NCBI GenBank assembly: GCA_038247245.1
Contig: JBBRVE010000002.1
Coordinates: 10,173-74,172 of the forward strand
Direction of reading: 5' to 3'
From: Bdellovibrionales bacterium
Lineage (GTDB): Bacteria > Pseudomonadota > Alphaproteobacteria > Micavibrionales > UBA2020
Length of the DNA stretch: 64,000 nt
Both the position numbers and the translations under genes were made by a program. Numbering within the stretch: position 1 is the stretch's first letter; every line of letters starts with the position of its first letter. The notes under the pieces were generated by a model that did not search any database, was not told where the DNA came from, and worked only from the letters and a program-made list of their open reading frames with translations. This document shows positions 22,976-41,485 of the stretch, one piece after another.

Positions 22976-23438
22976 AGCAGTATCAGCCCGCTTCACAAGC
23001 GGTTAATCAAGCACAATTCAAGTGTGATTAACGGCGCTTCAAACTACAGGTGAAGCGCGAATTGGCACGATTTCAAGCCCTCGCCAAGCAGAAGTTTGAT
23101 AAAACTATCGCTTCGTAGCGTGTTTAAGTGGTTGCGAAGCCCATGCAAGCGGGGTTTTCTAAGTAGTCGTCCCCTTTTCAGGGCTTAAACACCAAGTATA
23201 GCAAGCCGATTAGCTTTCTCATGACCTGAAGAGGTGATCACGCGCTGCACTCGCCATCAATGGAAGGCTAGATCTTACATTTTGGTATATCAATGCGGAG
23301 CGCGTTCTCGACTGCGGTTCTATCGTGACGGAGTGCAACGGAAAGATTATCGCGAAAACAAGCATCCTGCCGAAGCCGTAAGCGGCCTTTCGGAACAAGA
23401 AACACTTCAGCATTCACCTGTTCAAGCGGAGACGTTCC

Positions 23439-23750
23439 ATGAAGGAAGGCCTGTCGATAAAGTTCAACGACAAATCGAGGTTCCTGAAGCCTGCACCCAA
23501 GCCCACGATCAAGAATGAGAACGACATCAAGGTCGGCCACCGCATCGAAGCGGAGGGCTCGAAGATCGCCGTCCGGGGCGGCAAGATCGTGAGCCGATGG
23601 GAGTCCCTGCTAAAGAAAGACCCCAGGAGCCGACACGAGACACCCAAGCAGAAACTCAACGATTACCGCCAGGCCGCTGCCGAAGCGGCTGCGCGCAAGC
23701 ACAAGGCGGCTCGCGCCCACCGCAAGCCCAACGGCGCGCCGACACCCTGA
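23439..23750 (+). CDS. small basic hypothetical protein
   Basis: 103 aa, Lys/Arg-rich, with GGAGA 8-9 nt upstream of the ATG and a terminator directly downstream. Confidence 0.5.
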   Translation: MKEGLSIKFNDKSRFLKPAPKPTIKNENDIKVGHRIEAEGSKIAVRGGKIVSRWESLLKKDPRSRHETPKQKLNDYRQAAAEAAARKHKAARAHRKPNGAPTP

Positions 23751-23765: not shown

Positions 23766-23803
23766 AAACACAACGGCCTGCCTTGCTGGAGGCCGTTGTG
23801 TTT
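23766..23803 (+). terminator. rho-independent terminator
   Basis: AAACACAACGGCCT / AGGCCGTTGTGTTT 14-bp stem ending in a T run. Confidence 0.75.
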
Positions 23804-23836: not shown

Positions 23837-24022
23837 TCACTTGCACGGCTTGCTAGTTGCCGATTGAGCATCCTCAGACTTTTGCGCCCTTGTAGCATCG
23901 TCCTCTTCGATTATGTGCCCGCATCGAACGGTAATCGCAGGTGTAAGAACGACATATGCTCCATACGAAAGCATTGCTGCTGCAATTAATCCGACAAGAG
24001 CGATTTTATACCGTGATTTCAT
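23837..24022 (-). CDS. putative immunity protein of orphan toxin 4 (single-pass membrane peptide)
   Basis: 61 aa with one TM helix (IALVGLIAAAMLSYGAYVVL). Starts 11 nt after the toxin stop. Assigned by position only. Confidence 0.5.
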   Translation of the reverse strand: MKSRYKIALVGLIAAAMLSYGAYVVLTPAITVRCGHIIEEDDATRAQKSEDAQSATSKPCK

Positions 24023-24032
24023 TGACTATCCC

Positions 24033-24773
24033 TTAATTGAGGGGTGGGGGCGTAATTGTTACAGGCACGGGTAGTGATATGGACTTCGACGATGCTGTGA
24101 TGGATTGCCATCCCAGTGGTGCCTCAAGAGTGGCTCCGGAAAAACGGCCTACCTTAGTCCTGATGGTTACATCACCGGGCGAGCCGATCATTGTTATGCT
24201 CTTTCCAGGAAACTTTTTGGCCAGCCAATACGCAAGCCTGCCATTAAAGCTGTTAATGCCTCCCTGCGAGCCGCCACACACAAGAGAATGAATTGGCTTA
24301 TCTGGCGTGTAACCAGCGTCAAGCATATCCTGTCCAACTTCTTCAAACGAAAGCAGTGATCCTCCTTCTTCAGCAGTCGATACCGCGTATGGATCATAAA
24401 GGCCGGAACTTTCGTTCTTTTTACCGTGTGCGCCCAAAGTAAAATAATTGGAATTATTGTATGAATGGTTAGCACGCCAACTCGTATAATTATCATAACT
24501 CCATGCCATTGACATTTTGTTAACATCTACAAGCCCGAGATAATCGCTGTATCTGATCGGGTTCTGACCCACGTAATTGAATAAGTTAGAGCCTCCGTTG
24601 AAACCAATCGGATCACTTTGCACATACCTTCCTACCTTTATGGCAACCTGATTATCCCGTCCGCGCGCCTGAATCTCATGTTCCTGCAAAATGTTGCCGA
24701 TGCCGTCGTAGGCACAGGCTGTCAAGTAAGCGGTGGCGAGTTCTTCGGAAATGGCGCAAATGTCGCGGGGCAA
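24033..24773 (-). CDS. orphan Rhs C-terminal toxin cassette 4
   Basis: Carries the Rhs core-end motif VGRYVQSDPIGFNGGSNLFNYVGQNPIRYSDYLGL, then a unique ~170-aa C-terminal domain. TTG start with GAGGA 6 nt upstream. Confidence 0.8.
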   Translation of the reverse strand: MPRDICAISEELATAYLTACAYDGIGNILQEHEIQARGRDNQVAIKVGRYVQSDPIGFNGGSNLFNYVGQNPIRYSDYLGLVDVNKMSMAWSYDNYTSWRANHSYNNSNYFTLGAHGKKNESSGLYDPYAVSTAEEGGSLLSFEEVGQDMLDAGYTPDKPIHSLVCGGSQGGINSFNGRLAYWLAKKFPGKSITMIGSPGDVTIRTKVGRFSGATLEAPLGWQSITASSKSISLPVPVTITPPPLN

Positions 24774-24803
24774 GCGGATTCCTCAAAGCGGGAGTTCAGG
24801 TTG

Positions 24804-25286
24804 TCAACTTACGCCGCCCCTCGTCGAAGAGGCGAGCCTTAATAGTATTTTGTCAGCTGACTGTTTAAATGAATGATACACCTCCAAACCTTCTCTTCTT
24901 ATAGCAACGTCAAGTTTGGCACTAAGTTGCTGGAGTATATTGCTTGCATCTTCAACTTTTCCTTGACGCTCACAATACAAAGCAAAATATATTTCAAGAG
25001 AGCCTTCTCGCTCAAGATTGGTGTATCCAAGCGCTATAACGTTATCATGTAATTCCTTCACCATCGAGAACTGCGCGTTATGATCGCAAAAGAGCATCAT
25101 TTTCCACTCTGCCACTCTGCGTCTGACCTCCAATTTTGATTCTTCCGACGACGCTAACGCTAGACAAGTTTCTTCCGCCTCATTTAGAGTGGGTCCAATT
25201 TCGGCTATAGGCTTTTCGAACGCACGAGCTGCAGTTGTATCCAATATTCTCGCGATTCTTCTGGATTCATTCTCACTATTTGTCAT
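24804..25286 (-). CDS. putative immunity protein of orphan toxin 3
   Basis: 160-aa, helical-looking cytoplasmic protein starting 9 nt after the toxin stop. Low GC. Assigned by position only. Confidence 0.6.
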   Translation of the reverse strand: MTNSENESRRIARILDTTAARAFEKPIAEIGPTLNEAEETCLALASSEESKLEVRRRVAEWKMMLFCDHNAQFSMVKELHDNVIALGYTNLEREGSLEIYFALYCERQGKVEDASNILQQLSAKLDVAIRREGLEVYHSFKQSADKILLRLASSTRGGVS

Positions 25287-25294
25287 TACGCAAC

Positions 25295-25978
25295 CTATTT
25301 TGGTGAGGAAAAATTCCAGTAGTCACATCTGGCTAAACCGCTGCCACTAAGCGTACTAGAGGGCCATTCTCCCTCTCTGACGCATGCCTGCCTGCAAAGG
25401 TCGCAACGTCCGGAATTAGGAGCGCTACCGGGCAGATCATCTAACGATGTGTCCAGACAGCTGACGTAATGCGCCTGACAGCTTTTACCTTCATCCGATT
25501 TTTTAGGGATGGCTGGGGGCGGCGCAGGGGGCGCATCCCCTCCTGTTCGGGGCGATGACTTGTTGCAAGCAGAATTTGGATCTTTATGACATTGTTCAAT
25601 CTGCTTTTGGATGATGTCGGCAACTATGATACCAGTGATTACGAGCACGCACCCTTCCATAACAAGAGCCACTGCATTCCCTGTCGGGTCAATGTTCATC
25701 ACAGGGTTGACGTTGGCGTAGTTGAAGGTGTTGAGGCCGCCATAGATGCCGATAGGGTCGGATGAGATATAGCGGCCAACAGTTGCCTCTGACGCAGCTT
25801 CGCCGTACCGAGGGGCATTTTCTCTAGACGCTGTAAGAGCTTGCGGATAAAAATTTCTGCCGCGCCTGCCACTTCCGTAAAAAATTTTCTCTGACGCGCT
25901 TTTTTCCGCGCGCAGCGACATTCCGGCGAACATGCCGGGCGGCGGTGCGGATGGCTGCGGGTGCTGGCTAAGAAGCAA
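25295..25978 (-). CDS. orphan Rhs C-terminal toxin cassette 3
   Basis: [35 protein letters not shown], followed by a hydrophobic helix (AVALVMEGCVLVITGIIVADII) and a Cys-rich tail. TTG start with AGGAG 8 nt upstream. Confidence 0.75.
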   Translation of the reverse strand: MLLSQHPQPSAPPPGMFAGMSLRAEKSASEKIFYGSGRRGRNFYPQALTASRENAPRYGEAASEATVGRYISSDPIGIYGGLNTFNYANVNPVMNIDPTGNAVALVMEGCVLVITGIIVADIIQKQIEQCHKDPNSACNKSSPRTGGDAPPAPPPAIPKKSDEGKSCQAHYVSCLDTSLDDLPGSAPNSGRCDLCRQACVREGEWPSSTLSGSGLARCDYWNFSSPK

Positions 25979-26055
25979 GATTATTTCTCCTGCCTCAAGT
26001 TTCCCTCACCGGGGCGCGCGGCGCAAGGGGCGTTTTTTGGCATTGGAGGGCCTTT

Positions 26056-27174
26056 TCAGGCGGTTTGGTCGGGTTCTGCCTCGTCGGCATCCAGCACCCG
26101 CGCAAGGGCTTCCTGCGCCTCCGGGGCGGGCGCGCTGCCGGGCTCATGCTGCGCCCGGTGCAGGCGCGCGGGGTGCGTGGCGGTATGGATGGCTTGCAGC
26201 TTGTCGATGGCGACATGTGTGTAAATCGCCGTGGTTTCCAGTTTTTCATGGCCGAGCATGGCTTGAAGGAAGCGTATATCCGCGCCGCCTTCAAGCATGT
26301 GCGTGGCGCAGGCGTGGCGCAGCAGATGGGTCGCCCCCGGCTTGTTTATCCCGGCGCATTCCATGTACTTCCTCATGCGCGCGGCGATGAAGGCGGGCAG
26401 GCACGGCTCCCCGTAATCGGTCACGAACAGCGCTTCATGCTCGTGCGTGAGCAGCTGCGGCCTGCCTTCGAGCAGGTACTTGTCGAGCCATGCCAGCGCC
26501 CTCTCGCCTATCGGCACCACCCGGTCGCGCTTGTTCTTCCCTTCGCGCACGGCGATAAGGCGGCGGTGGAAGTCGGCGTCATAAATGGCAAGGTTCGCGG
26601 CCTCCGTCCGGCGCAGGCCCGTGCTGTACAGCAGTTCCAGCAGCGCCCGGTCGCGCAGGCCCATCGGGTCGCTAGGGTCGGCCTCGGCCAGTATCGCCTC
26701 CACCTCCGGGATGGACAGCACCACGCGCGGAAGCCGCTTGCCGTCGCGCGGAATGTCCAGCTCGGAAGCCGGATTGTAAAGGATATGGTTTTCTCTCGCC
26801 AGCCAACGGAACCAGAGTTTCAGCGGCACAAGGCAGCCCATTTGTGTGCCGGAGGTGAGCGGCTTTCCGTCCGGCTTGCGGTAGTAAAACAGATGCCGCT
26901 GGTAACGCTCCACCACCTGCTTGCTCACATCGGCGGGTTTCATCAACCCGCGCTCGTCGCACCACACGATAAAGCGCCGGATGGCGACGCGGCGCGACTG
27001 CACGGTGTCGGCGCTGTAGCCGTGCACGGCCAGCCATTCCAGATGTTCGTGCATGTAGGGCAGCATCGGGTGGTCTGCAAGCGGGTCGCGGGCCGCTGCT
27101 TGCGGCGGGCGCGGCGGCTTGCGCGCGTTGCGTTTGCGCGTCTTGATGCGCCAGCGCAGGCCCTTGGTTGTCAT
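26056..27174 (-). CDS. tyrosine-type site-specific recombinase (XerC/D-like)
   Basis: 372 aa. Motifs GLRRTEA, HLLRHACATHMLEGGADIRFLQAMLGHEKLETTAIYTHV (R...H..R...Y catalytic set). The start overlaps the upstream stop (ATGA). Confidence 0.92.
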   Translation of the reverse strand: MTTKGLRWRIKTRKRNARKPPRPPQAAARDPLADHPMLPYMHEHLEWLAVHGYSADTVQSRRVAIRRFIVWCDERGLMKPADVSKQVVERYQRHLFYYRKPDGKPLTSGTQMGCLVPLKLWFRWLARENHILYNPASELDIPRDGKRLPRVVLSIPEVEAILAEADPSDPMGLRDRALLELLYSTGLRRTEAANLAIYDADFHRRLIAVREGKNKRDRVVPIGERALAWLDKYLLEGRPQLLTHEHEALFVTDYGEPCLPAFIAARMRKYMECAGINKPGATHLLRHACATHMLEGGADIRFLQAMLGHEKLETTAIYTHVAIDKLQAIHTATHPARLHRAQHEPGSAPAPEAQEALARVLDADEAEPDQTA

Positions 27175-30158
27175 GGATACGACACGGCGGCGGGGCCGTG
27201 GCCGTTCAGGGCGCGCGATTCAGGGGCGGATTCCGCGTTTTGCGCGGGAATGGCTGTGGCTATTGGGTTTTCTGCGTTTTCGACGCCCCGACCGCCCGCC
27301 GACAAGGGGCCGACTGGCCCCCGACCGGGGGCCGACCGCGCGGCATTTAACCCCGACCGGGTTTTGTCGTAGTCGAGTTTTGCCGGGTCGATAAGCCCGG
27401 ACAGATGCGGCGCGGCGTTGTCGTCGCCGTCATGCAGCAGCTCGTAATGGAACAGTCCCGCAGGCCCCCGGTGCAGCAGCAACAGCTCAAGGTCGGCAAG
27501 CCGCGCAAGATGCACTTTTAGCTGCGTGTCGGAGACGCCCGTATGGTCGCGCAGCTCCTTGCGGCTAAAGCGAATGTCCCGAGGCGGTAGCTTCCTTGCG
27601 GCAGCGCGGGCCTGCACCATCTGCCGGATGAGGCGCAGCAGCCGCCTTGTCTGCGGCGGCAGCTCGTCAAGGGAGCGGCCAAGGACTTCATGCGCCAGCG
27701 TGGTTGCGCGCGCAATATCCTCGCGCGTGGCCTCGATGTAGGAGATTGTTTTCTCGCCTTGGGTAAACGTGCGGATGGGCCGCTGGTGCTGGTGCAGCAG
27801 CGCAATCACGTCGATAAGAGTCAGATACTTTTCATGGTCGCGGCGGGTGCGCGTCCGGTCGTCAAGGAAGGTCAGGCGGTCGGCGTATGGGTTCACCACG
27901 AACAGCGGCTGCAGGAGCCGCTGCGCGTTCTGTTGCAGGGCCAAGATCCCGGTTTTCGCGGCCTTGGCCTGCAAGCCGTCGAGCGTTCTTTTAGCCCGCT
28001 GCTTCTCATGGATGGCGCGGGTCTGCTCCCGCCCTTCATCCACCGCCAGCACAAGGCAGCGGTTCATCAGCTCTTCGTCAATGTCGATGGCCGTGGTCGT
28101 CGTTATCAGCGCGGCGGGGCCTTCGACTCTGTATTCCTGCGTCACCAGATTGCCGTTGGCGTCGGCTCCGGTGCTGGCAATCACCAGCTCTCCCTCGGAT
28201 TGCAGCAGCTTCAACGCATAGGCGGCGCGCTGCGCGCCCTGTTCCTCCGCTATCGCCAGCACTTTGTTTTTAAGCGCGTCCTTGCCCATGTAGTACAGGC
28301 TCTGCCCGGTCACGGCGCTGTATTTCACCTTGTGGTCGTCGGGCATGAAGGCCAGCACCGCGTCCATGACGGAAGTTTTCCCGCCCGCGCTGCTCGACTG
28401 GATAACGACGCCAAGCGGGTTTTCCAGCTTGCGCGAAGTCGCGGCAAGATAGGCCGTCAAGACGTTGGTTTCCTCGCCCACCATCCCGCAGCGCACGAAG
28501 TCGGCCAGAATGCGCTCTATCAGGTCAGGCGCGCGCAGCAGCGCAAGCGCGGCCTCGCGCTCGTCCTCCGTCATGTCGGGGGTCGCGGGGTCTTTGGGCG
28601 CAAGCGCCTTGTTAATCTCGTCGTCCTGCACTTCTTCGAGCTTCAGCAGGACGCGGCCCAGCTCCGCTTTCAGCTCATCCTCCTTCGAGCGTAATTCGTG
28701 CGCGGCTGCTTGCGTGAACACCGCGCGGGCGCGGGCGGCGTAGAGGTCAAGCGTATCAACATGGAACAGGTCGCCTTGGCTCACCATCACAATGACTTTC
28801 AGGACGCCCACAGAGAGATTTTTGGGCAGGCCCCGGATGCGCCAGCGGCGCGCGCCGAAGGTCAACAGCACTTCCCGTTCGTTCACCGCGGCGTCGAGGT
28901 CGCAACGCGGCGCAGGCGGCATGGGTGATGCCGGCATGACAGCCGGCGCCGGATTCATAGCAGCTAAAGAAGATGGCACAGCTTCTTTAGTCGCCTCTTG
29001 TGGCGCAGGCTCGACCACGGTCAGTTCAGGCTCCTGCACATCCCGCGCGGGCGCTGTTCCGCTGCCGAGCCATTCGGCCTTGCGGATAAGAGCGCCAAGG
29101 CTTTTATTCGCAGGCTGCACTTTCAGCGCGTACTCGTTGGCGTCAACGCCTTGCGGGAACATGATGCGCCAGCATTCGATTCCAGCCTCCATCAGCTGCG
29201 CCGCAACCTTGGCAGCGCCCCGGTCGCCTGCCTCGTCGCGGTCGAAGGCGATTAACACGCGCTTGATGCCGTGGGTTTTAAAGGCGGTCAGCATTTCAGC
29301 GGTGAAGCCCTCGACGCCATAGGCGGCAGTCACATTGCGGAAGCCCGCGCACCAGAAGGTCGCGGCGTCCAGCAGGGCTTCGCACAGGATAATTTCTTTG
29401 CTGGCCGTCAATGCCTGCACGTTCCATAGGCCCTTGTGCGGCCCCGGCAGATACAGGTGCAGCGGTGTCCCCTTACGCAAGTTGTTCAGCAGCTTCCGGC
29501 CATAGATTTCCTGCACGTCGCCCTGCGGGCCGAGAATAGGAACAACCAACGAGCCGTTAAAGTGTTCATGGCCGCTTTCGCGGTAGATGCCGAGTTTTTC
29601 CAGCCGCGCGCGGATGGCTGCGCCTTCTTTCCGGGTTTTGTCCGGCAGGCGCAGGCCCAAGCTGCGGTCGGCAAGGCCGAGTTTGAAGGTGTCGATCAGC
29701 TCCGCGTTGTCCAAGCCGCGCTCTTTCAGGTAGGCGAGAGCTTCCGGCGATTGTTTCAGGCGGCTGTGATAATAGGCAACAACATCAGCCAGCAGCTTGT
29801 TGTCCTCCGCGTCCACCGTCACAGGCGCGGGCAAGGCCCGCACCGTGCTGCGTTTTACCGGGGCCTCTGTCACTTCGGACAGGCCCTCACGCAGCAGCTC
29901 GACCGCATGACGGAAGCTGACGCCGTTTTTCTTCATCACCCAGTCGACAACGCCGCCGCCAGCGCCGCAGCCGAAGCAGTTAAACAGGTTCTTGTCGCCG
30001 GATACGCGGAAGGATGGTGTCTCTTCCTCGTGGAACGGGCAGAGGCCCACATGGTCTTTGCCCTGCTTGGTCAGTTCCACGCCCGACGATTCGACCAGAC
30101 GCAGCAGCGAAGTTTCATTTTTTAGCCGCTCTATCTCTGCATCCGGGATTCTCGCCAT
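27171..30158 (-). CDS. DNA primase (zf-CHC2 plus Toprim) fused to a P-loop NTPase/helicase-like domain and a C-terminal DNA-binding region
   Basis: 995 aa. Zinc finger CPFHEEETPSFRVSGDKNLFNCFGCGAGG, Toprim ILCEALLDA...AFDRDEAGDRGA, and Walker A-like QSSSAGGKTSV. Confidence 0.85.
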   Translation of the reverse strand: MARIPDAEIERLKNETSLLRLVESSGVELTKQGKDHVGLCPFHEEETPSFRVSGDKNLFNCFGCGAGGGVVDWVMKKNGVSFRHAVELLREGLSEVTEAPVKRSTVRALPAPVTVDAEDNKLLADVVAYYHSRLKQSPEALAYLKERGLDNAELIDTFKLGLADRSLGLRLPDKTRKEGAAIRARLEKLGIYRESGHEHFNGSLVVPILGPQGDVQEIYGRKLLNNLRKGTPLHLYLPGPHKGLWNVQALTASKEIILCEALLDAATFWCAGFRNVTAAYGVEGFTAEMLTAFKTHGIKRVLIAFDRDEAGDRGAAKVAAQLMEAGIECWRIMFPQGVDANEYALKVQPANKSLGALIRKAEWLGSGTAPARDVQEPELTVVEPAPQEATKEAVPSSLAAMNPAPAVMPASPMPPAPRCDLDAAVNEREVLLTFGARRWRIRGLPKNLSVGVLKVIVMVSQGDLFHVDTLDLYAARARAVFTQAAAHELRSKEDELKAELGRVLLKLEEVQDDEINKALAPKDPATPDMTEDEREAALALLRAPDLIERILADFVRCGMVGEETNVLTAYLAATSRKLENPLGVVIQSSSAGGKTSVMDAVLAFMPDDHKVKYSAVTGQSLYYMGKDALKNKVLAIAEEQGAQRAAYALKLLQSEGELVIASTGADANGNLVTQEYRVEGPAALITTTTAIDIDEELMNRCLVLAVDEGREQTRAIHEKQRAKRTLDGLQAKAAKTGILALQQNAQRLLQPLFVVNPYADRLTFLDDRTRTRRDHEKYLTLIDVIALLHQHQRPIRTFTQGEKTISYIEATREDIARATTLAHEVLGRSLDELPPQTRRLLRLIRQMVQARAAARKLPPRDIRFSRKELRDHTGVSDTQLKVHLARLADLELLLLHRGPAGLFHYELLHDGDDNAAPHLSGLIDPAKLDYDKTRSGLNAARSAPGRGPVGPLSAGGRGVENAENPIATAIPAQNAESAPESRALNGHGPAAVSYP

Positions 30159-30307
30159 TTTCGGGGGTTCCTTCTAAAACCTGTCAAGAGGTGGGCCGGG
30201 TCAAGCGGCTAAAAATTAACCTGATTGAGTTTTACGTCATATGCTTGTAAAGTCAACAAGGATGAACATAGTTTCAGGGCGCTTATCCAGAATCGGAGGT
30301 TAGTATC

Positions 30308-30706
30308 ATGGTCGCATTAGAGAACCAGCAATCGGGTGTCGCTATGGGCCAGTCTCTTTCTCAGGACGAGAAGATTTATTTTAAAACGCTCGGCGCGCGC
30401 ATCGCGCAGCGCCGCGAAGAACTCGACCTGACACAGCAACAGGTCGCGGACGCCCTGCACCTGACACAGCAAACCTATGCGGCTTATGAGGTTGGCCGTC
30501 ACAGGCTGCCCGTTTCCCTGCTTCCCGTCCTCTCCGAAGTCTTGTCGATAGAGGTGGAAGTATTGCTTGGGATGGCCGCGAAGAACGCAAAGCGCGGCCC
30601 CGCGCCGAAGTACCAGCAGCAGATTGAGCAGATAAGCCGCCTGCCTAAACCGCAGCAGCGTATGCTGACGGACGTAATCGACGGCCTCCTGCTAAAGTTC
30701 GGCTGA
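30308..30706 (+). CDS. XRE-family transcriptional regulator
   Basis: HTH LGARIAQRREELDLTQQQVADALHLTQQTYAAYEVGRHRLPVSLL. Divergent from the primase operon. The start may be MGQSL at 30344. Confidence 0.85.
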   Translation: MVALENQQSGVAMGQSLSQDEKIYFKTLGARIAQRREELDLTQQQVADALHLTQQTYAAYEVGRHRLPVSLLPVLSEVLSIEVEVLLGMAAKNAKRGPAPKYQQQIEQISRLPKPQQRMLTDVIDGLLLKFG

Positions 30707-30783
30707 CGGAGGCAACATTTTTATTTCGCCCGCCTGCTCTCTACCGGGAGCGGGATGGGGAATCATTAGCAGCTAAGAAAAGA

Positions 30784-32358: not shown

Positions 32359-32703
32359 GAGCGGCTTTCATCCTCCCTTAAAAACGCGCTGTATCGTGCC
32401 GCAGAAAGGCGCGTACTGCGCGGGGGCCGCTAAAAAAAGCGGCCCGCATTCGAAGCGCGCCGACATGATGCGAAGAGCATCAGGTGGGCGGGCTTCGCTC
32501 CCGGCTAGAAGTGCCGGGATGCGCGCTCTCGCGCGCCGCATGGTCAAGCGTCCCAACATCGGCGGGAGCTTGACCGGGTTTCCAAAGGGGCGTACAAGCC
32601 CCTTGTGTTCAGGTGTCGGGGCGAACAGCCCTGACATGCAGCCGCCACAAGGAACGGTGAAGGCTGCCGAGTGCAGAGGCGTTTCGCCTTTGCCGCGCGT
32701 GCG

Positions 32704-32738
32704 TTGCCCCGCTTGAGGGGGCAATGCGTAAGTGCGCC
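32704..32738 (+). promoter_or_regulatory. candidate oriT: inverted repeat plus MobQ nick motif
   Basis: TTGCCCC-gcttgag-GGGGCAA, followed 4 nt later by TAAGTGCGCC, which matches the RSF1010/R1162 nick region TAAGTGCG/CCCT. Lies about 350 bp upstream of the relaxase gene. Confidence 0.65.
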
Positions 32739-33179
32739 TTTAATCAATTCTATGCTTCGTCGCAGGTGGTCATCGGTTAGTCGTCCGGTGGTGAAGTGAG
32801 TTTTTTCGCGCAATACAGCGTCTCCGGCTGTCTGGTGATTTTTACAGCCGTTGCACTTAACCCGGCATTACGGGTTGCGCTGAATCTTGCTCTTACCTCG
32901 AGTCTAAGGCGCGGCAGCTTGACCAATGGTTAAAGTTTTTGGAATCAACACGCTCGGACAGGGGAAGGAATATCGGGGTGTTCCTCGATACGGCGCGACT
33001 CGGGTGGGTCGCGCTTGTGTATTACAAAGCTCATGCGGCGGCGCAATATCCCGCGCCGACTGCATTCAGTTTTTGCGGGTTTTCTTTTTCAGGGGTCGGC
33101 CCCGCGCGGCAGCGCGGGCCGGGGTTGAGGGGCGCTCGCCCGGCCGGGCGGCAGGCCCGGACGCAAGAGCGGGGCTCGC

Positions 33180-33560
33180 TCAGGGGACGTCTTTCCAGTA
33201 AAAAAACGGCCCACCAATGTAGAGCAGAAGAATCACAAAATAGAACAAGAGCACCGTATTAATAACCGTATTCGTTCCGCCCTTGAAAAACTTCAATGAC
33301 ACCGAGTAGTAAAAAGCACATCCTAGAAAGTAAACTAGGGGGTATTTCTCAATCGCCCTGCATTGTGCGCTGAAAAAATGAAACACTGGAGGCCAAATCG
33401 ATCCGAGTTCCATAGCTGTCTCGTAGAGCAGCCGAAAGGCGGATCGACTGAATACGAAGAAGATAATTGCAATGGCAATGAAACCTAAATTGAATCTTTC
33501 AATAAAGTGACCGAATTCAAACCCCTTTAGAAAATTTATTATTCTGCGCTGCATCCGCAT
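33180..33560 (-). CDS. putative immunity protein of orphan toxin 2 (multi-pass membrane protein)
   Basis: 126 aa with about 4 hydrophobic helices. Its start overlaps the toxin 3' end by 22 nt. Low GC. Confidence 0.6.
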   Translation of the reverse strand: MRMQRRIINFLKGFEFGHFIERFNLGFIAIAIIFFVFSRSAFRLLYETAMELGSIWPPVFHFFSAQCRAIEKYPLVYFLGCAFYYSVSLKFFKGGTNTVINTVLLFYFVILLLYIGGPFFYWKDVP

Positions 33561-34132
33561 GAACCCTCCTTGTCTAAAAGCGGGTCCAATTTGCTGTAAA
33601 TATCTGTCATGATGCCGTACTTAGCGCGCAACGCTTGAGTAGCTTCGTGGATAAATAACCTTGCTGCTTCCTCTCTACTCCAGCCAAGAGACCTGACGCT
33701 CATGCCCATAGTTTGGTCCGGTTGGCCCGGAAACCCATACTGCGGAAGAAACCTAGGTTCCCAATTAGTGTGACCAGCCCCCCCATTTGCAGTGAAGAAG
33801 GTATTATCCTCCCAAAATGAATGGGGATAATAGCCAAAGTTAAAGCTCACTACATTCGTAAAAAACATATCCTCTAAGGTTTGATTGTCCTTACGAAGTT
33901 GTTTCCTAAACCAGTCGCCGAGGGCGCTACATTTCAGCCTATTGTAGGCTTCTTCGATAATTTCATCTTTGGTAGCAGGGTCGCCCACGCCGGAGTTCAC
34001 GTCTATGAATTTTAAACCTAGTGGGTCAATCGCATTGACCGGATTCTGCCCAACATAGCCGAAGGTGTTGAGGCCGCCAGCTATTCCGATTGGGTCGCTG
34101 CTGATATAGCGGCCTACATTCAGAAGTTCCAA
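33539..34132 (-). CDS. orphan Rhs C-terminal toxin cassette 2
   Basis: Begins [40 protein letters not shown], then a unique ~150-aa domain. TTG start directly after the upstream stop, with GGAG 4 nt upstream. Confidence 0.8.
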   Translation of the reverse strand: MELLNVGRYISSDPIGIAGGLNTFGYVGQNPVNAIDPLGLKFIDVNSGVGDPATKDEIIEEAYNRLKCSALGDWFRKQLRKDNQTLEDMFFTNVVSFNFGYYPHSFWEDNTFFTANGGAGHTNWEPRFLPQYGFPGQPDQTMGMSVRSLGWSREEAARLFIHEATQALRAKYGIMTDIYSKLDPLLDKEGSCGCSAE

Positions 34133-34133
34133 T

Positions 34134-34574
34134 TTACTCCAACCCCTTAGAGTGCTGGCGGTTCTTTTCTATTGCTTTAAAATGTTTCTCGGAACGCTTT
34201 AGGTCATTAATAAACGCTACAGCTACCGTAGAGATATGAGCTTTGGCATTCTTGGCGCAGCCTTTATCAATCATCTGAAGTAGCACCTCGCTGTCTTGAG
34301 TGAGGAATGGGCGTTTAACTTGCCTGTCAAACACATTGTAGCCGGAAAAATAACCTAAAACCCAAGCGGCATTCTCCTTTTCAACGGCAGAGCCAGTGCG
34401 CCGATGGGTCAACCATTCCGAGCAGAGCCGGTTACTTGCATTTGGATCAATTATCTCGGGGTGTGAATTAAAATATCCATCCTGCTTCGGTGAAGCACTC
34501 ACGCCTTCCCCTTGAAAAAAAGCAACCATCGCCAAGACTGATAAAAGCCCGAGTATGTTCGTCTTAATTTCCAT
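34134..34574 (-). CDS. putative immunity protein of orphan toxin 1 (signal peptide, periplasmic)
   Basis: Start placed at MEIKTNILGLLSVLAMVAFFQGEGVSA. 146 aa. Lies immediately downstream of the toxin ORF (the extended ORF overlaps it). Confidence 0.6.
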   Translation of the reverse strand: MEIKTNILGLLSVLAMVAFFQGEGVSASPKQDGYFNSHPEIIDPNASNRLCSEWLTHRRTGSAVEKENAAWVLGYFSGYNVFDRQVKRPFLTQDSEVLLQMIDKGCAKNAKAHISTVAVAFINDLKRSEKHFKAIEKNRQHSKGLE

Positions 34575-34588
34575 CAAGCGTTTCCTCT

Positions 34589-35275
34589 TTACTGCTTTGG
34601 CGGCGTACAAATCCCGCCAGCCTCCGGGACACATTGATAATCATTTTTAAGAGCTTTAAGAAAATATGGCGTGACGAATGGTGATACCGCTGGATCAACA
34701 ACAAAAGGTAGTGGGCAAACGGGCATTGGGCCGTTAGCAGTGCCTTTCATTTCCAAGCCCAGCATATCGAGCGGTCCGCCCGGGGCAACGAAACTGCAAG
34801 CTGTTCCTTGATCGTACACGCAGTCGTATTGCCCCCACTTCACCACAGGAGATTTGGGATCATCTGGATCAGCAGGAGCGTAAGTTATCCCGCCGAAATT
34901 ATAATCAGGTTGGTAAATTCCTAACTGTGTAAGAGCGGGGTCTTTCTCAGTAACTTCGGGAGCATGTGCAGTGCAAACTAAATACTTATCAGATGGGCAA
35001 AGTCCCATAAAGTCAAAAAACCCAACAGGATTAGCTTTTACGTAGAGGAAAGTGTTGAGGCCGCCAGTGAGTCCGATAGGGTCGGACGATATATAGCGGC
35101 CTATATTTATGGCAACCTTGTTATCGCGCTCGGGTTGCTGATACGTATGGTCGGGACAAAGGTTGCCGCTGTCGTCGTACTCGCCTTGCAGCAACTGGGC
35201 AACCGCGTCGTAGTTATATGCCGTCGCGCTGCCGGGGGCGTGTCGGTCAGAAAAATCGTGAAGATCGCGCGGCAA
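34589..35275 (-). CDS. orphan Rhs C-terminal toxin cassette 1
   Basis: [35 protein letters not shown], followed by a Cys-rich ~160-aa domain. TTG start with AAGGA 6 nt upstream. The 5' leader is homologous to that of cassette 4. Confidence 0.8.
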
Positions 35276-35338
35276 TGTAATTCCTTAAAGCCAGAGGTTT
35301 AAGTTAGTGCAGAAATCAAGTTAATCCGCCCCCTTTGA

Positions 35339-35578
35339 TTATTCTTTGCGTCGCAACTCCCACAAACGCCCTTTCAGAGCGGCAACAGCTTTTTCAAAAT
35401 CTGTAAGTGCAAACTTCCAAGTACCGCCATCCTTGGGACTAAATATTTCAATCTGCATTTCGTCAAAGCCTTCTTCTTGAGTCATGACGCATACTATCTG
35501 ATCGTCAAAATATAGGTCGCCAACAAGGTCCTCGTGGTCGGGATCACTACCTACAGTAATGCGGAAACGCGGGTTCAT
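35339..35578 (-). CDS. putative cognate immunity protein of the full-length Rhs toxin
   Basis: 79-aa acidic protein. Its ATG overlaps the rhs stop (ATGA). Confidence 0.65.
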   Translation of the reverse strand: MNPRFRITVGSDPDHEDLVGDLYFDDQIVCVMTQEEGFDEMQIEIFSPKDGGTWKFALTDFEKAVAALKGRLWELRRKE

Positions 35579-38500
35579 GGTTCTAAGAATCCCATGAAAT
35601 TACCTCCGGCATCATATCGCGCGCCGCCGCCAAGCGAACCGCCATAATAATCTGTTCCGCCAAACCTGTTACTACTTGTCCTCTTCACATTTCCCAATAT
35701 ATCGTTAAGAAGCTCTTGGCCTTTAGAATTCTTGGCGGCGACGTTTCCTGTCGCCTCTGGGAATACTGTTCCTTCACGACGCCCATGCTTTTCTAATGCA
35801 CGACCTGCTTTCGTTAACTGTCCACCTTTATCTATAGCTTGCCCTGCTTTGCGAAGCGCCTCTATATCACCGTGGCAATTCTGTGCGCTCTTGCGGAACG
35901 CGCCCTTAAGAATTCCACCTGCTCCGCTAACAACTCCTGCTCCAGCTGCCGCTTCTATGCCTGTGGTGAGTGGGCCCCATGGATTTATCTGATATTCAAT
36001 ATCCCCGGTCACATCTGGCGCGTTGGCGTAGTCCGCATAGAAAATAATACCAGCGGCGAAGGCAAGGGGGATGAAGAAAAATTCCCCGGTCGGGTCAACC
36101 CAGTTCACCGGGTTCTGCCCGACATAGCCGTAGGTGTTGAGGCCCCCGGCAAGACCGATGGGGTCAGAGGATATATAGCGGCCAAGCGTCGGATCATAGT
36201 CGCGCATGTAGTTGTAGTGGAGGCCGGTTTCGGCATCCGCGAACTGGCCAGGGAAGCGCAAGTTGCTCGCTGCCGCTCCCGACGTTGCATAGGTTTCGCC
36301 GAACGGCTCCTGCTGGCGGTCCCAGACGACGGCTTGCGTCGCGTCGGTCATTTTCTGGGGCGTGTTGAGGTGGTCGGGGTGGACGTAATAGATCGTGCCC
36401 GCCGCCTCGATCTGCGCCAGCGGTATGTTGCCGAGCCAGATGTATTCGCGCAGGTTGGTGCCGCTGCCATCTGATTCAGCTATCAGGCGACCGACTTCGT
36501 CGTAGTGAAAGTGGACGGTCGTCGTGCCGTCGGATTTGCTGACGCGCTGGCCAAGCGCATTGACCTTGTAGGTCGTGGTGGTGCTGCCCACCAATACGGA
36601 TTCAAGTCGGTTGCGCCCACCATAGGTGAAACTCACGTCGGGGTCGGTGGCGCGGTTGTCTGTCGCGGTATTGCCCGATGCCGTATAGGTGAAGCTGCGC
36701 GTGTTCGTGCCGTCGTTGATGCTGGAAAGCTTGTTGCTGCCGCCCGGCAGGGTCGAGGTCTGCGTGACGCCGCTTTTCACGCGCGTCAGGCGGTTGGCGT
36801 TGAAGTCATAGGTGTAATCGACCGTTCCGTAAGCGCCGACTGCCTGGCTGAGCCGGTTCAGCGTATCGAGCGTAAAAGTCTGGTTACGGCCAGATGCAAG
36901 GTTGTCGGTGATCGCCGTAATGTTGCCTGCGTTGTCATAGGCGATATCGAGGTCCTGCACATGCGTCGCTCCGTCCTCCGTCACGATATCCGTCAGCCAG
37001 TAGTTCTGGTCGAATGTCCGCGCCAGTGTGAGGCTGTTGCCGTAGGTTAGTCCTTTCAGCGGCCCGAAAGGCTCATACGTGATGCTTGATGCCAGCGTCG
37101 CGGGCGTGCCCGTGCTGGTCGCCACCGTGATGATCTTGCCGTGACTGTCATAGGTATAAGTCACAGTGCGCCCAGACGGATAGGTGACTTGGGTCACGCG
37201 GTTGGCGACATCATAGGCATAGGCCGTCGTGTAGGTCTGCGCGCCGATAGTGCGGACGCTTTGCGTCACGTTGCCCACATCGTCATAGGTGAGCGCCGTC
37301 GTGCCGCTTTCATCGGTGATGCCCGTCAGCCGCCCGACGCCCTTGTTGCCGCCCGATGTACTGTCATAGGTGAAGGCCATGTTTTCGCCGGAATAAGCCG
37401 GGAAGGTGACGGTCAGGGGACGGTTGAGCGCGTCGAAGGTACGGTTGGTAACGACGCCACGCGCATCGGTCTGGCTGGTGACGTTTTCCGCGAGGTCGTA
37501 GTTATAGACGGTCGTGCCGGTGTCGGGGCTGGTGGCCTGAATCACGCGGCTGAAGCCGTCATAAATGTAAGTGGTGGATAGTGTGCGGAAGTCGCTCTGG
37601 CTCGTCGCGTTGTCGCGGGAGTCGTAGCCGGTCGATGCCACTTTCGTCAGCGGATCGGTAACGGTTATCAGGCGGTCGAGCGCGTCGAACGCCATGTTTG
37701 TGGCATTGCTGCGCGCGTCCGTTGCCCGCGTACGGTTGCTGTTGGCGTCGTAGAGATAAGCGGTCGCCTGCGGCGAAGACGCGCCTATGTTTTTCTTGAG
37801 CCGCGAAATCTCGTCGAATTCGCGTGCCTGTTTCGCCCGCAGGGCTGGGGTCGCGTTTTTAACGTCTTCCTGAATAATGTTTCCGTCGGCATCCAGCGTG
37901 TATTCGATGCGCTCGCCCGCTTCGTTCTCGACCGCCGTCAGGCGTTGCGCATTGTCGTAGGTGTAGGTGAGTGTGGTCGCATCGGGCAGCGTGATCAGCG
38001 TCACCAGACCCGCCAGGTCGTAATCAATCGTCGTGACCTGATTACCCGCCGTCGCATTCACCGTGTAGGTCTTCAGCCGCCCCAGATCGTCATAGGTGAG
38101 ATCGGTCACAAGGCTGTTTGGATCGGTGAAGGACAGCGGCCTGCCCATGTTGTCGTAGGAAGTGATCGACGTGACCTGGCTGAGCGCGTTCGTGACGGTC
38201 GCAAGGTTTTTTTCCGTGCTGGTGTAGGTATAGGTCGTCGTGTCCGTCAGATCGGTGCGCGGGCCATCCGCCGTCAGCACGTTTCCGAGCGCGTCATAGG
38301 TATTGGTCCAGGTGCGGTTATTTCCCGTGGTGGTGTAGGGAACGGTCTGGGTTTGGCTGTCGGTCTGCTTGTAAGTGAGCCTGTTGCCAGCGGCGTCATA
38401 GGTCATGTCCACGGTCAGCCCGGTACGCGTGACCTGCGTCGGCAGACGCAGAGTCGTGTCCCAAGTCGTGCCGATGGTACGCGCCTGCGCGCCGCCGAAG

Positions 38501-39972
38501 GCTTCGGTGCGGCTCGTTTCCAGCCCCGCCGAGGAAATGGTGTGTTTGGTGACGTTGCCCTTCCAGTCAGTGTAATTCGCGGCGAAACCGTTGGCGTTGT
38601 AGGTGAACTGGGAATTTGCGGCGGGGACCGATCCCACGGCAAGGCGGTCGATGCGCGTGACTTTCGGCATGCTCTGGAGCGTTGAAAACGTGTATTTGTC
38701 CTGGCCGCCGAGCGGGCCGGTGACGGTTCTGGTGCCATCGACGTTGTAGGTGATGGTGGTCAGGCCTGCGCCGCCTGCGTGCTGGCTGGAAGTTGCCCGC
38801 CCGGTCGTGCTGTCATATGCCCATGTGGCGTAGCGGTTGCCCAGCTCGTCCGTGATGCCTGTCAGGTAGGTGGGGAAATTCGTGTCTTCGTAAAGATACG
38901 TGATGACCGGATTATCCGTTAGGCTGGGCGTGCTGTCGGGATACGTGACGGTCGATAAAATTTTCGTCAGCGCAGTGGTGCTCGGATAAGCATTGACGTA
39001 GCCGTACGTGTAAACCTCGCCGTTCGGGTCGGTCACCGTGTCCACCAAGCCGTCGCCATTGTAGGTGAGCGTCAGCGAGCGGCCCAGATTATCGGCAACC
39101 GTCGTGAGCTTGCCGGAGCTATAGGTGAGGGTCTGCGTGTATCCGTCAAGAAAGGCAATCGACTGCAATACGCCGGTGCTGTTGTAGGTCTCAACCGTTT
39201 TGTCGCCATCCGTCAGCAGCCAGTTGCTACCGGACTGGACGAGTTTGAGGACCACGTCGGTGTCGGAACTCCACACGCCACCCGACTTGTTAAAAATAGC
39301 CCGCTGTCCGTCGCCGCGCCACGCGCCCCATTTGGTAGAGCCGCTGTTTTCGAGAAAGCGCTCGTAAATGTTCCGCCAGCCTGGCCCCATCACGCCGTTC
39401 GTCAGGCGGATCTGGCTGTTATAGGTCCGCGCGAAAATGAGCGGGTGCGCGCCGGAGCCTTGGATATCGATCTTGGTCTCGAATTTATTGCCTGTGCTGA
39501 CGGTAATCGGATTGCCGCATTGGGGTTTCGAGACCCAGGGCGCATCTCCGCTCACGCCCTCTCCCAATGCAGGATCTGGGCACGCCGCGCCAAATGTCTT
39601 ACGCCCCGCTGAAACCGAGCAGCCGGATGTTGACCACGCATTTTCATCAAGGCCTGACGGGCAGCCCGACCGGATACTGAGGCTGCGGGGCAAAGTCAGG
39701 TAAAAATATTTGCAGATCCACATCGGGTGGCTGTCGCCGAACACGTCCACGCGAGATCCCATCACGAGGTCTCCGTAGGGTGATGCGTAATACGCTTTGA
39801 TGCCATCGCAGACCAATTGCGCCGTCTGGCACGAATAGCCGGGTCCCGCCCCTTGGCATCCGGAAATCAGTTGAGGGCTCGTTTCCCAGTAATACGTCTG
39901 GGCTTGCGAGGGGGACGATATGAATAGAAAGGCGAGCACAACGCCAAGCGTCATTCGGTTGAAATGTTTCAT
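35575..39972 (-). CDS. Rhs/YD-repeat polymorphic toxin with Sec signal peptide and variable C-terminal toxin domain
   Basis: 1465 aa. Signal peptide MKHFNRMTLGVVLAFLFISSPSQA, a Cys-rich ~140-aa region, the shell start GNPITVSTGNKFE, dozens of YD/RHS repeats (Y.YD..G....) and the core end [38 protein letters not shown], followed by a ~190-aa tail. Confidence 0.95.
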   Translation of the reverse strand: MKHFNRMTLGVVLAFLFISSPSQAQTYYWETSPQLISGCQGAGPGYSCQTAQLVCDGIKAYYASPYGDLVMGSRVDVFGDSHPMWICKYFYLTLPRSLSIRSGCPSGLDENAWSTSGCSVSAGRKTFGAACPDPALGEGVSGDAPWVSKPQCGNPITVSTGNKFETKIDIQGSGAHPLIFARTYNSQIRLTNGVMGPGWRNIYERFLENSGSTKWGAWRGDGQRAIFNKSGGVWSSDTDVVLKLVQSGSNWLLTDGDKTVETYNSTGVLQSIAFLDGYTQTLTYSSGKLTTVADNLGRSLTLTYNGDGLVDTVTDPNGEVYTYGYVNAYPSTTALTKILSTVTYPDSTPSLTDNPVITYLYEDTNFPTYLTGITDELGNRYATWAYDSTTGRATSSQHAGGAGLTTITYNVDGTRTVTGPLGGQDKYTFSTLQSMPKVTRIDRLAVGSVPAANSQFTYNANGFAANYTDWKGNVTKHTISSAGLETSRTEAFGGAQARTIGTTWDTTLRLPTQVTRTGLTVDMTYDAAGNRLTYKQTDSQTQTVPYTTTGNNRTWTNTYDALGNVLTADGPRTDLTDTTTYTYTSTEKNLATVTNALSQVTSITSYDNMGRPLSFTDPNSLVTDLTYDDLGRLKTYTVNATAGNQVTTIDYDLAGLVTLITLPDATTLTYTYDNAQRLTAVENEAGERIEYTLDADGNIIQEDVKNATPALRAKQAREFDEISRLKKNIGASSPQATAYLYDANSNRTRATDARSNATNMAFDALDRLITVTDPLTKVASTGYDSRDNATSQSDFRTLSTTYIYDGFSRVIQATSPDTGTTVYNYDLAENVTSQTDARGVVTNRTFDALNRPLTVTFPAYSGENMAFTYDSTSGGNKGVGRLTGITDESGTTALTYDDVGNVTQSVRTIGAQTYTTAYAYDVANRVTQVTYPSGRTVTYTYDSHGKIITVATSTGTPATLASSITYEPFGPLKGLTYGNSLTLARTFDQNYWLTDIVTEDGATHVQDLDIAYDNAGNITAITDNLASGRNQTFTLDTLNRLSQAVGAYGTVDYTYDFNANRLTRVKSGVTQTSTLPGGSNKLSSINDGTNTRSFTYTASGNTATDNRATDPDVSFTYGGRNRLESVLVGSTTTTYKVNALGQRVSKSDGTTTVHFHYDEVGRLIAESDGSGTNLREYIWLGNIPLAQIEAAGTIYYVHPDHLNTPQKMTDATQAVVWDRQQEPFGETYATSGAAASNLRFPGQFADAETGLHYNYMRDYDPTLGRYISSDPIGLAGGLNTYGYVGQNPVNWVDPTGEFFFIPLAFAAGIIFYADYANAPDVTGDIEYQINPWGPLTTGIEAAAGAGVVSGAGGILKGAFRKSAQNCHGDIEALRKAGQAIDKGGQLTKAGRALEKHGRREGTVFPEATGNVAAKNSKGQELLNDILGNVKRTSSNRFGGTDYYGGSLGGGARYDAGGNFMGFLEP

Positions 39973-41459: not shown

Positions 41460-41461
41460 TT

Positions 41462-41485
41462 CCAAGTGACCTATAAGTGACCCAA
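41462..41485 (+). repeat. 24-bp repeat CCAAGTGACCTATAAGTGACCCAA, attR-proximal copy
   Basis: Exact copy of 21001-21024. Abuts the integrase start and lies 118 bp from the attR core. Confidence 0.6.

Follow-up and report, generated by a model that had tools for sequence, protein, structure and literature searches.

A tip-carrying integrative element probably inserts at the core/tip junction of an Rhs toxin array in a Bdellovibrionales bacterium

The stretch of DNA analysed here, called the window, comprises 64,000 nt of a Bdellovibrionales bacterium (contig JBBRVE010000002.1 of assembly GCA_038247245.1, positions 10,173-74,172) and contains an array of Rhs polymorphic-toxin genes on the minus strand at 23837-39972. 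We consider it probable that this array hosts a mobile element which carries its own toxin tip (the variable C-terminal domain, CT) and integrates site-specifically at the junction between the Rhs core and the tip. The locus has one deployable Rhs toxin, with a BECR tRNase tip and the immunity gene imm0, plus four orphan tip/immunity cassettes on a tRNA-Arg island. Its modular units (tip, immunity gene and leader) are joined at a short core, GGCCGCTATAT, which encodes G-R-Y-I and starts the Rhs junction. The element lies between two copies of this core; a tip and an immunity gene of its own (orphan 2 with imm2) would make up its left end, and its right arm would have become the leader, Shine-Dalgarno (SD) sequence and TTG start codon of a displaced tip (orphan 3). 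With a full-length rhs gene as target, the tip of the element would be fused in frame to the resident shell and the old tip pushed downstream as an orphan. The anatomy, the breakpoints, the att cores and the association throughout the element family are seen directly in the sequences; we infer that the integrase of the element is the enzyme that moves tips, and that it may also shuffle cassettes that have no element backbone.

The element and its attachment cores

The element is about 8.3 kb long (25766-34114, minus strand), lies between 12-nt direct repeats of GGCCGCTATATC at 34103-34114 and 25766-25777, and splits the array between orphan 2/imm2 and orphan 3. Its GC content is 62-65%, against 47-51% in the cassettes. 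An earlier note on this DNA, which described the array from the sequence alone, did not mention the element. On the minus strand it encodes a MobA/MobL relaxase (30784-32358; Pfam PF03389, E=6e-57), a 995-aa primase with a CHC2 zinc finger and a Toprim domain (27171-30158; 54-71% identity in relatives) and a 372-aa tyrosine integrase with an N-terminal SAM-like domain (26056-27174; Pfam Phage_integrase, E=6e-41). An XRE-type helix-turn-helix (HTH) regulator (30308-30706, plus strand; Pfam HTH_3), conserved in relatives, is divergent from the primase-integrase operon. An integrase and a relaxase are thus present and no type IV secretion system genes lie within 25766-34114, as is usual for a mobilizable element. 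The right arm of 278 nt (25778-26055, minus strand) is at the same time leader B of orphan 3. It holds the sequence AGGAG-N8-TTG, with the TTG at 25976-25978, the internal repeats GCGTCAGAG and AGAGAAAAT, and a 53-nt terminal block (25778-25830) which is conserved in the family and defines the right end of the element; the left end is placed by analogy with tandem relatives. The relaxase gene and about 0.8 kb of GC-rich non-coding DNA (32359-33179), a possible oriT, are absent from all 79 metagenomic relatives described below; by this comparison, the element in the window seems to have acquired a module for mobilisation.

Orphan 2 and imm2 are most likely cargo of the element. This is proposed by analogy with the tandem relatives, in which the tip to the left of the XRE gene lies inside the repeated unit. 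Furthermore, arms resembling leader B are joined elsewhere to diverged CT2-like tips (P0033 in locus L097 and P0034 in L095), a layout expected for an attP or for a derivative lacking the backbone, and this backs the cargo status of orphan 2. Orphan 3 is, on this reading, the displaced tip, whose leader, SD and TTG are supplied by the right arm. Since the element landed at an orphan position, CT2 is not fused to a shell at present. The predicted attP would run from the right arm (...GGCAACTGTT) through GGCCGCTATATC into CT2 (AGCAGCGACCC), and the predicted empty site from ...GAATGTA through GGCCGCTATATC into CT3 (TCATCCGACCC).

The junction occurs in five copies, as the earlier note had reported, with the G codon of GRY starting at 36183 in the main rhs gene and at 35101, 34114, 25777 and 24632 in orphans 1 to 4. 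The 11-mer ATATAGCGGCC (equal to GGCCGCTATAT on the coding strand) is exact in four of the five, namely the main gene, where it lies at 36173-36183 (minus strand) and is a potential attB, and orphans 1, 2 and 3; orphan 4 reads GGAAGGTATGT in its place. Orphans 2 and 3 also have the string GGTGTTGAGGCCGCC without a mismatch, and orphan 1 and the main gene have it with one. Around the exact 11-mer in these four copies, neighbouring synonymous sites vary freely. Across 111 nt, junction copies agree at only 47-71% of positions, and no orphan matches the main gene exactly and in register for longer than 9-14 nt; together with the non-canonical leaders, this means that the orphan core fragments are not closely similar to the resident core. 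Exact runs of at most 14 nt make a poor substrate for RecA-type recombination. Hence the proposal in the earlier note that the junction strings are ready substrates for recombination holds in so far as the strings are shared and the breakpoints fall there, but the homologous route is weak. Two candidate descriptors of the site were rejected: a 6-bp inverted repeat (ATATAG-GCCG-CTATAT) around the core of orphan 1, considered as a recombinase site, is absent from the other copies, and the 8-mer att-core consensus GCNTATRT is not enriched in the window.

Judged by sequence comparison, every mappable module boundary in the lineage of the window falls on the 11-mer GGCCGCTATAT (GRYI). A 2.3-kb metagenome contig (L001) has the order leader B, another tip joined at GGCCGCTATAT, an immunity gene, orphan 1, imm1 and the start of orphan 2. 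Its leader B is identical to that of the window at 245/245 nt up to 25767, after which a different tip and immunity gene follow. In the same contig, leader A of orphan 1 differs at 25 of 185 nt until about 4 nt before the 11-mer (~35104-35105) and the next 1102 nt show 0 differences, so that leader A goes along with the upstream cassette and not with the downstream tip. Leader B is found with three different tips, in the window, in P0024 and, as a leader B variant, in P0026. CT4 also occurs on a full-length Rhs protein (P0020 in L002), where identity is 31% upstream and then 100% and 92% from GGAAGGTATGT onwards, exactly at the G of GRY. Likewise, identity between the main rhs gene and those of L002 and L004 falls from 85-87% to 45-61% at the 11-mer. 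The nearest Rhs relatives are about 90% identical over the shell and bear other tips, and the tips differ among the close relatives P0002, P0016, P0017 and P0020. The exchange of CT domains at the junction suspected in the earlier note is borne out by the occurrence of CT4 on a second shell, with homology from GRY and breakpoints on ATATAGCGGCC, and the cross-genome comparison that it had called for finds different tips on related shells with sharp breakpoints at the core.

Relatives of the element

A metagenome scan queried with the integrase protein alone, in which no Rhs criterion was used, found 79 loci with integrase relatives at 55-72% identity. Almost all of these share an XRE(-)/primase/integrase backbone, often in tandem. 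Of the integrase copies, 70 are followed by 450 nt or more of flanking sequence, and 35 of these have the 53-nt right-end block. Thirty of the 35 blocks lead directly and in frame into the 3' half of the Rhs junction (YAYVGxNP....DPxGL) and from there into 25 different tips. In 15 relatives, where the block adjoins Rhs junctions, its identity is 74-80%. At the other side of the backbone, 22/30 elements have a same-strand Rhs junction or tip 0.4-2.6 kb upstream from the primase gene, compared with 0/30 in the opposite-strand control, and in seven of the 22 the junction sits in a long Rhs open reading frame (ORF).

Three of these loci illustrate the arrangement. In L071 a 1479-aa Rhs protein is fused at GGLNT/YAYV (YAYVSNNP; the slash marks the joint) to the tip of the element, followed by a lipoprotein-type immunity gene, XRE, primase, integrase and an arm of about 1 kb; tip, immunity gene and backbone then repeat as an identical unit of 7065 nt, and a different tip comes last. 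The attL, attM and attR of this locus have only TA(CG/TA)CATATGT in common. The attL and attR of L044 have TAYGCCTATGT in common, and without the element the rhs gene of this locus would be in frame again. L094 contains two identical 6447-nt units (tip, immunity gene, XRE, primase and integrase) and then two older orphans. The tandem copies in L071 and L094 provide indirect evidence that the elements are active. Other arm joints, W/AY..PFGE in L081 and /ATYLHTDHLGTPR in L095, are further conserved Tyr-containing sites at the end of the Rhs core. Unit boundaries in the family map to 8-12-nt cores inside the Rhs junction, and these sequences suggest that the family uses Tyr-codon-centred cores of the core/tip junction, most often TAYGCNTATGT (YAYV).

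Tandem arrays of at least two element copies are frequent (L026, L028, L032, L038, L047, L050, L053, L060, L071, L080, L081, L090 and L094). The copies are identical or of different lineages, and one or two tip/immunity modules lie between them.

The family extends to a culturable host. Integrase matches at 60-80% identity were found in 12 Ralstonia replicons, among them the megaplasmid of Ralstonia pseudosolanacearum GMI1000, which was inspected as L098 (NC_003296.1, 86858-111835). It holds a decayed copy between Rhs genes, with a truncated primase and an intact-looking integrase of 66% identity.

Cassettes, translation starts and the surrounding island

The main Rhs gene (35575-39972, minus strand) encodes 1465 aa with a Sec-type signal peptide (MKHFNRMTLGVVLAFLFISSPSQAQ), DUF6531, YD repeats and an Rhs-associated core. 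RHS repeats (PF05593) match in 12 stretches (E=4.5e-44), TIGR01643 matches too, and the core (TIGR03696) lies at residues 1222-1296 (E=1e-27), after which the variable C-terminal domain begins. Among GTDB species representatives the best match to the protein is just 38-39% over the shell, with no close relative. The nearest relatives mentioned above are carried by elements with relaxase, type IV coupling protein (T4CP), ParA and RepA genes, and in L002 and L004 the rhs gene is directly downstream of the NikA/relaxase/T4CP genes of an integrative mobilisable or conjugative element. The N-terminus of the Rhs protein contains no PAAR domain, and no type VI secretion system gene was found among the ORFs of the island or the large ORFs flanking it.

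The tip of this protein, CT0 (35578-36084, minus strand), can be assigned to a family. A profile built from 7 homologues and searched with hmmsearch against the PDB matched chain A of 6D7Y (E=1.2e-5), profile positions 93-182 aligning with residues 5-95/96, although the match was only E=0.5 in a single-sequence phmmer search. The alignment spans the whole 96-residue toxin chain and includes the KHG.R motif and a C-terminal G.G.R...G.F.GF motif; the His of the invariant KHG.R motif aligns with SKHAGRH of 6D7Y and may be the counterpart of the published catalytic H3372. These sequence features indicate that CT0 is a BECR-fold tRNase related to CdiA-CT PABL017, a toxin which cleaves tRNA-Gln and tRNA-Pro (PMC9086364). 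In contrast to that toxin, CT0 rides on an Rhs shell instead of CdiA, the identity is low, and the immunity protein is unrelated by sequence search. The candidate cytoplasmic immunity protein of CT0, imm0 (79 aa; 35339-35578, minus strand), is encoded by a gene whose ATG overlaps the rhs stop (ATGA) and which has no SD of its own.

Behind this pair lie the four orphans, each with a truncated core, a distinct tip and a small ORF downstream, so that the array has the form of a classical orphan array behind a full-length gene. All ORFs are present as the earlier note had described them, including its observation that only the last part of the Rhs core is kept: when measured against NCBIfam TIGR03696 (Rhs_assc_core, 76 model positions), the orphans match solely at positions 40/41-75/76, the last ~36 positions, with E values of 1e-8 to 1e-10. 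The small ORF behind each tip, a candidate immunity gene, either overlaps it as ATGA or follows within 14 nt, and all five tips (CT0-CT4) are mutually different.

All four cassettes lie on the minus strand. Orphan 1 (228 aa; 34589-35275) comprises leader A (35102-35275; AAGGA-N6-TTG), the core 11-mer at 35091-35101 and the Cys-rich tip CT1; its partner imm1 (34134-34574, the likely start being the ATG at 34574) has its own SD and a signal peptide, and a 146-aa version of it exists in the protein collection. Orphan 2 (197 aa; 33539-34132), with tip CT2, has a 6-codon mini-leader with GGAG-N4-TTG and starts 1 nt past the imm1 stop; imm2 (126 aa; 33180-33560), a candidate multi-pass membrane immunity protein, is preceded by its own strong SD (AAGGAGG). 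Orphan 3 (227 aa from the TTG; 25295-25978) ends in tip CT3 with a transmembrane helix and a Cys-rich tail, and imm3 (160 aa; 24804-25286), without an SD, starts 8 nt past its stop. Orphan 4 (246 aa; 24033-24773) has a variant of leader A (GAGGA-N6-TTG), the degenerate core GGAAGGTATGT and a tip, CT4, with a GGSQG motif; imm4 (61 aa; 23837-24022), with an N-terminal membrane anchor and a weak SD at most, starts 10 nt past the orphan 4 stop.

The earlier note could recognise none of the five CT domains, which no longer holds for CT0 and still does for CT1-CT4. Pfam and NCBIfam scans of all ten array proteins gave no toxin or immunity family beyond the Rhs parts, and this includes the Cys-rich CT1 and CT3. 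The structure predictions proposed in the earlier note were of help for neither CT2 (AlphaFold model from 5 sequences, pLDDT 59.8) nor CT4 (2 sequences, 50.9); these models are poor and Foldseek against the PDB returned nothing at E<0.1. In phmmer searches of the PDB, which covered CT2 and CT4 but not CT1, CT3 and the immunity proteins, matches were at chance level. CT2 has four detectable relatives among 1.8 billion representatives, with an invariant H-E in a predicted long helix that reads HELSH in one homologue. The homologue search with CT4 came back empty because the cluster representative bears another tip. Weak metzincin matches of CT2 and a strand-GGSQG-helix resembling a 'nucleophile elbow' in CT4 are leads only, given the poor models.

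Some orphans start within or 1 nt past the preceding immunity gene, which implies that a cassette can end nearly at the immunity stop. Mini-leaders of 6-7 codons before the recombination core were seen in the window (MELLNV/GRY, 34132-34140) and in L095 (VASVVEL/ATYLH, at 599-1110 and 2160-2500).

Each orphan opens on a TTG that is its first in-frame start and stands behind an SD-like run; the four strings quoted in the earlier note are exact and lie above chance. The strength of these sites, calculated as duplex energy with the anti-SD, is -6.1, -7.7, -8.4 and -6.2 kcal/mol, equal to or exceeding that of bona fide genes at the locus, and just 7% of random window positions, taken as background, reach -6. 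An SD-like motif stands ahead of about 6% of arbitrary first starts and a TTG with an SD is found at 2-3%, giving p ~4e-4 for the three independent leaders jointly. The homology between the leaders of cassettes 1 and 4 that the earlier note had seen is confirmed: it runs from the stop codon through GAGGAAT/AAGGAAT and a variable spacer of 4 nt to TTGCC.CGCGA. Leader A corresponds colinearly to the ~45 residues that end the Rhs core, albeit strongly diverged (BLASTP 38% over 89 residues including the junction), and starts 3-6 nt (orphan 4, L001) or about 35 nt (orphan 1) after the preceding immunity stop. In all three copies of leader A the SD and TTG are kept and the 4-nt spacer varies. Between the two copies which share the upstream stop, codons 1-37 show 6 synonymous and 3 nonsynonymous substitutions, a dN/dS of 0.12 (binomial p ~0.007, computed by hand). 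A tblastn search of the 79 loci for leader A beside integrases found nothing significant. In the leader B relatives of L095-L097 the purine run and TTG are kept as well; the peptide is otherwise unconstrained, and indels keep the frame open. The TTG starts thus appear to be real, with SD and TTG conserved in leaders A and B, but that of orphan 3 is the right arm of the element and not an evolved toxin start. The position of this start is disputed: NCBI protein P0025 (212 aa) begins at the ATG at 25933, without an SD, whereas the relatives P0024, P0033 and P0034 are called from the position equivalent to the TTG (window 25978).

An SD is lacking in front of three immunity genes, imm0, imm3 and imm4 (imm4 has a weak one at most). 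They start 0-10 nt from the toxin stop and should therefore rely for translation on ribosomes that complete the toxin ORF, whereas imm1 and imm2 are each preceded by an SD. A cell that has swapped its tip still faces siblings armed with the old one, and expression of the displaced immunity gene must therefore persist. The integrase gene is co-oriented with every displaced tip and may offer them read-through transcription. Taken with these arrangements, the SD-TTG starts most plausibly serve to keep the coupled downstream immunity genes translated. They would keep ribosomes running through displaced tips, with the immunity genes staying expressed, and would also express the cargo tip and its immunity gene from an excised or tandem form of the element; the truncated tip fragments made inside the cell would be a neutralised by-product.

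The entire Rhs locus is carried by a 20.7-kb island in tRNA-Arg(ACG) (window 20880-41652), in agreement with the earlier note, which had called it island-borne. The tRNA gene (20880-20956, plus strand; ARAGORN) is the integration site and left end of the island. A direct repeat of its 3' end (41603-41652, plus strand; 50 nt, 96% identity) forms the right end, the 3' 45-46 nt of the tRNA recurring at 41603-41648. A P4-type tyrosine integrase of the island (40149-41465, minus strand; Pfam Arm-DNA-bind_3, Phage_int_M and Phage_integrase) adjoins the distal repeat. The 27-nt repeat TTWCCAAGTGACCTATAAGTGACCCAA occurs on both island arms (20998-21024 and 41459-41485) and by its sequence looks like arm-type integrase binding sites. 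Directly after imm4, a hairpin with a 15-bp stem (23766-23803, minus strand) closes the array. The 106-nt stretch around it folds at -46.7 kcal/mol (z=-4.3), and on this modelling it is likely to be the transcription terminator of the whole array. Consensus scans of the array for sigma-70 promoters and terminators were uninformative, the promoter-like matches being mostly on the wrong strand or inside ORFs and the terminator-like ones at chance level. The tRNA-proximal part of the island (21016-23750) encodes an HTH_36/DnaD-like protein of 311 aa (22040-22975) and two ORFs without a family (21016-21837 and 23439-23750), which may be a replication or regulation module of the island. The flanks are ordinary proteobacterial housekeeping genes (uvrA, xseA, rluB, dctA and CPA2 transporters); CPA2-family cation/proton antiporter paralogues stand on either side (18094-19326 and 48025-49233), with MagA-like and KefB/C-like as best NCBIfam names.

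Competing explanations, known systems and significance

Orphan Rhs arrays and C-terminal displacement are textbook knowledge, and arrays of this kind are well documented. It could hence be argued that classical displacement accounts for the whole locus, with RecA-dependent recombination in the Rhs core, an unrelated insertion of the element and accidental SD-TTG starts. In an Acidovorax locus (L006) the orphans are indeed of the ordinary kind, retaining 158-234 aa of canonical core; leader A represents a diverged yet colinear end of an Rhs core; and 36-38% of arbitrary ORFs have TTG as their first start. We nevertheless regard this explanation as having only a small probability. The exact runs are only 9-19 nt, the flanks show either no relationship or 13% divergence as far as the core, and the unit boundaries lie at 8-11-nt cores. 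An unrelated insertion sits poorly with a right end that abuts Rhs junctions in frame in 30/35 independent relatives, and accidental starts with SD strengths which are jointly improbable (~4e-4). The suggestion that leader B and the tips belong to the host array, the element merely landing nearby (for example in AT-rich intergenic DNA) and the junction not being an att site, draws on L095 and L096, where a leader-B-like sequence directly follows an immunity-like gene with no integrase between; L095 is, however, equally explained as a deletion derivative that lost the backbone. As the 53-nt block invariably follows the integrase stop at a distance of 150-1400 nt and is shared by integrase lineages from unrelated metagenomes while the tip behind it varies, and as tandem units repeat arm, tip and backbone together, we give this suggestion hardly any weight. 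Collectively, the comparisons point to site-specific recombination by the tyrosine integrase of the element rather than to homologous displacement alone.

The earlier note had proposed that the orphans are expressed from their own SD-TTG starts as functional stand-alone short toxins. The conservation of these signals and the purifying selection on leader A would fit such a role, and Snodgrassella alvi transcribes many of its orphan Rhs tips, which prove toxic on expression (Steele 2017, PMC5727410). Yet the orphans in the window have no Sec signal peptide, shell, PAAR or other delivery module, and the peptide of leader B is not conserved, just the start and the open frame. Moreover, the signal peptide or transmembrane segments of imm1, imm2 and imm4, three of the four orphan immunity proteins, imply that their cognate toxins act outside the cytoplasm; with CT1 and CT3 being Cys-rich, the target would be beyond the reach of a cytoplasmic fragment. 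From their sequences we therefore consider it unlikely that the orphans are stand-alone toxins, and leave this role a slim chance.

Several points weigh against integration of a tip-carrying element at the junction, as favoured here. The evidence for recombination, excision and expression is entirely comparative, and the element in the window occupies an orphan position, not the main rhs gene, its tip being currently undeployed. Its left boundary and the cargo status of orphan 2 are based on the analogy with tandem relatives, the 12-nt repeat and the fusions of leader-B-like arms with CT2-like tips. The lineage of the window uses a GRYI site and most relatives YAYV. No link between leader A and an integrase was detected, and its resemblance to a diverged end of the Rhs core means that the leader A cassettes may stem from classical displacement; the purifying selection on it is calculated from no more than 9 substitutions. 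Finally, SD and start codon are not conserved in the right arms of more distant relatives of the element, and the NCBI call for orphan 3 uses a downstream ATG which lacks an SD.

A more far-reaching version, which we put forward only tentatively, is that the integrase acts on every core of the array and that the cassettes without a backbone are non-autonomous mini-elements that can be excised as circles and reinserted. The leaders would then be recombination arms that double as translation starts, and the locus would be integron-like, switching the fused tip on demand or stochastically while all immunity genes are expressed. As in integrons, there is an integrase with co-oriented, promoterless cassettes joined at short cores, and circular cassette intermediates are possible. 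Unlike integrons, the locus has no IntI-type integrase and no attI or attC hairpins, its cassettes form in-frame fusions with a structural gene, and the integrase itself rides on a mobile cassette with primase and relaxase. Its boundaries are 11-12-nt cores in coding sequence, and no convincing attC-like pair was found in the 301 bp scanned (25760-26060), which cover leader B only, leader A being unscanned.

The C-terminal displacement model (Jackson et al. 2009, PMC2935791) invokes homologous recombination and postulates circular tip intermediates, explicitly without an integrase. The arrays it addresses (those of PMC2935791 and, as relayed by Steele 2017, of Koskiniemi et al. 2014) have the same full-length rhs and immunity gene followed by truncated tips each with an immunity gene, the same evolutionary decoupling of tips from core, and the proposed circular tip intermediate. 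Here, in contrast, only ~36 codons of the core are left, the leaders are of a non-canonical type, exchange points lie at cores of 11-12 nt and a co-resident tyrosine integrase element bears a tip. Islands and satellites that replace the 3' ends of genes (e.g. P4-type elements in tRNA genes) likewise have an integrase beside attR and a short core in a conserved gene segment, restore the target frame with element DNA and accrete in tandem at one site. The replacement end in the present case is not a copy, but a different toxin domain with its immunity gene, and integration thus alters the function of the target gene. The rAID systems of Bacteroidales (PMC12247911) also place a tyrosine recombinase next to short, co-oriented orphan immunity genes, in arrays of unexplained origin with conserved intergenic motifs; they are defensive, unattached to a deployable Rhs and from another phylum, whereas the present array keeps its toxin tips and has an element that targets the rhs junction itself. 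The bee-gut bacteria Snodgrassella and Gilliamella recurrently have integrase-like genes near Rhs arrays with transcribed orphans that are toxic when expressed (Steele et al. 2017, PMC5727410). Proximity alone was reported there, with no att site, cargo or mechanism, the last being left open. Searches of open-access full text turned up no report of an element with the Rhs junction as its att site and a replacement tip as cargo. The integrative element family seems to represent a mechanistically new form of Rhs tip displacement, and the modular cassette boundaries at its core agree with this view.

How polymorphic toxins gain new warheads and shunt the old ones into orphan arrays has been a mechanistic question since the model of 2009. 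If the proposal is correct, the element family would supply the enzyme that is lacking from the displacement model, and would explain both the sharp exchange points and the presence of co-oriented orphans with working immunity genes. It would also explain the transfer of tips across species, the copy in the window even having a relaxase. Since a relative sits in the megaplasmid of Ralstonia GMI1000, the proposal is testable in culturable hosts, and it suggests a natural tool for the in-frame, site-specific swapping of protein C-termini. The SD-TTG starts on the orphans are likely to serve the coupled translation of immunity genes, in which case the orphans would be neither silent spares nor necessarily weapons.

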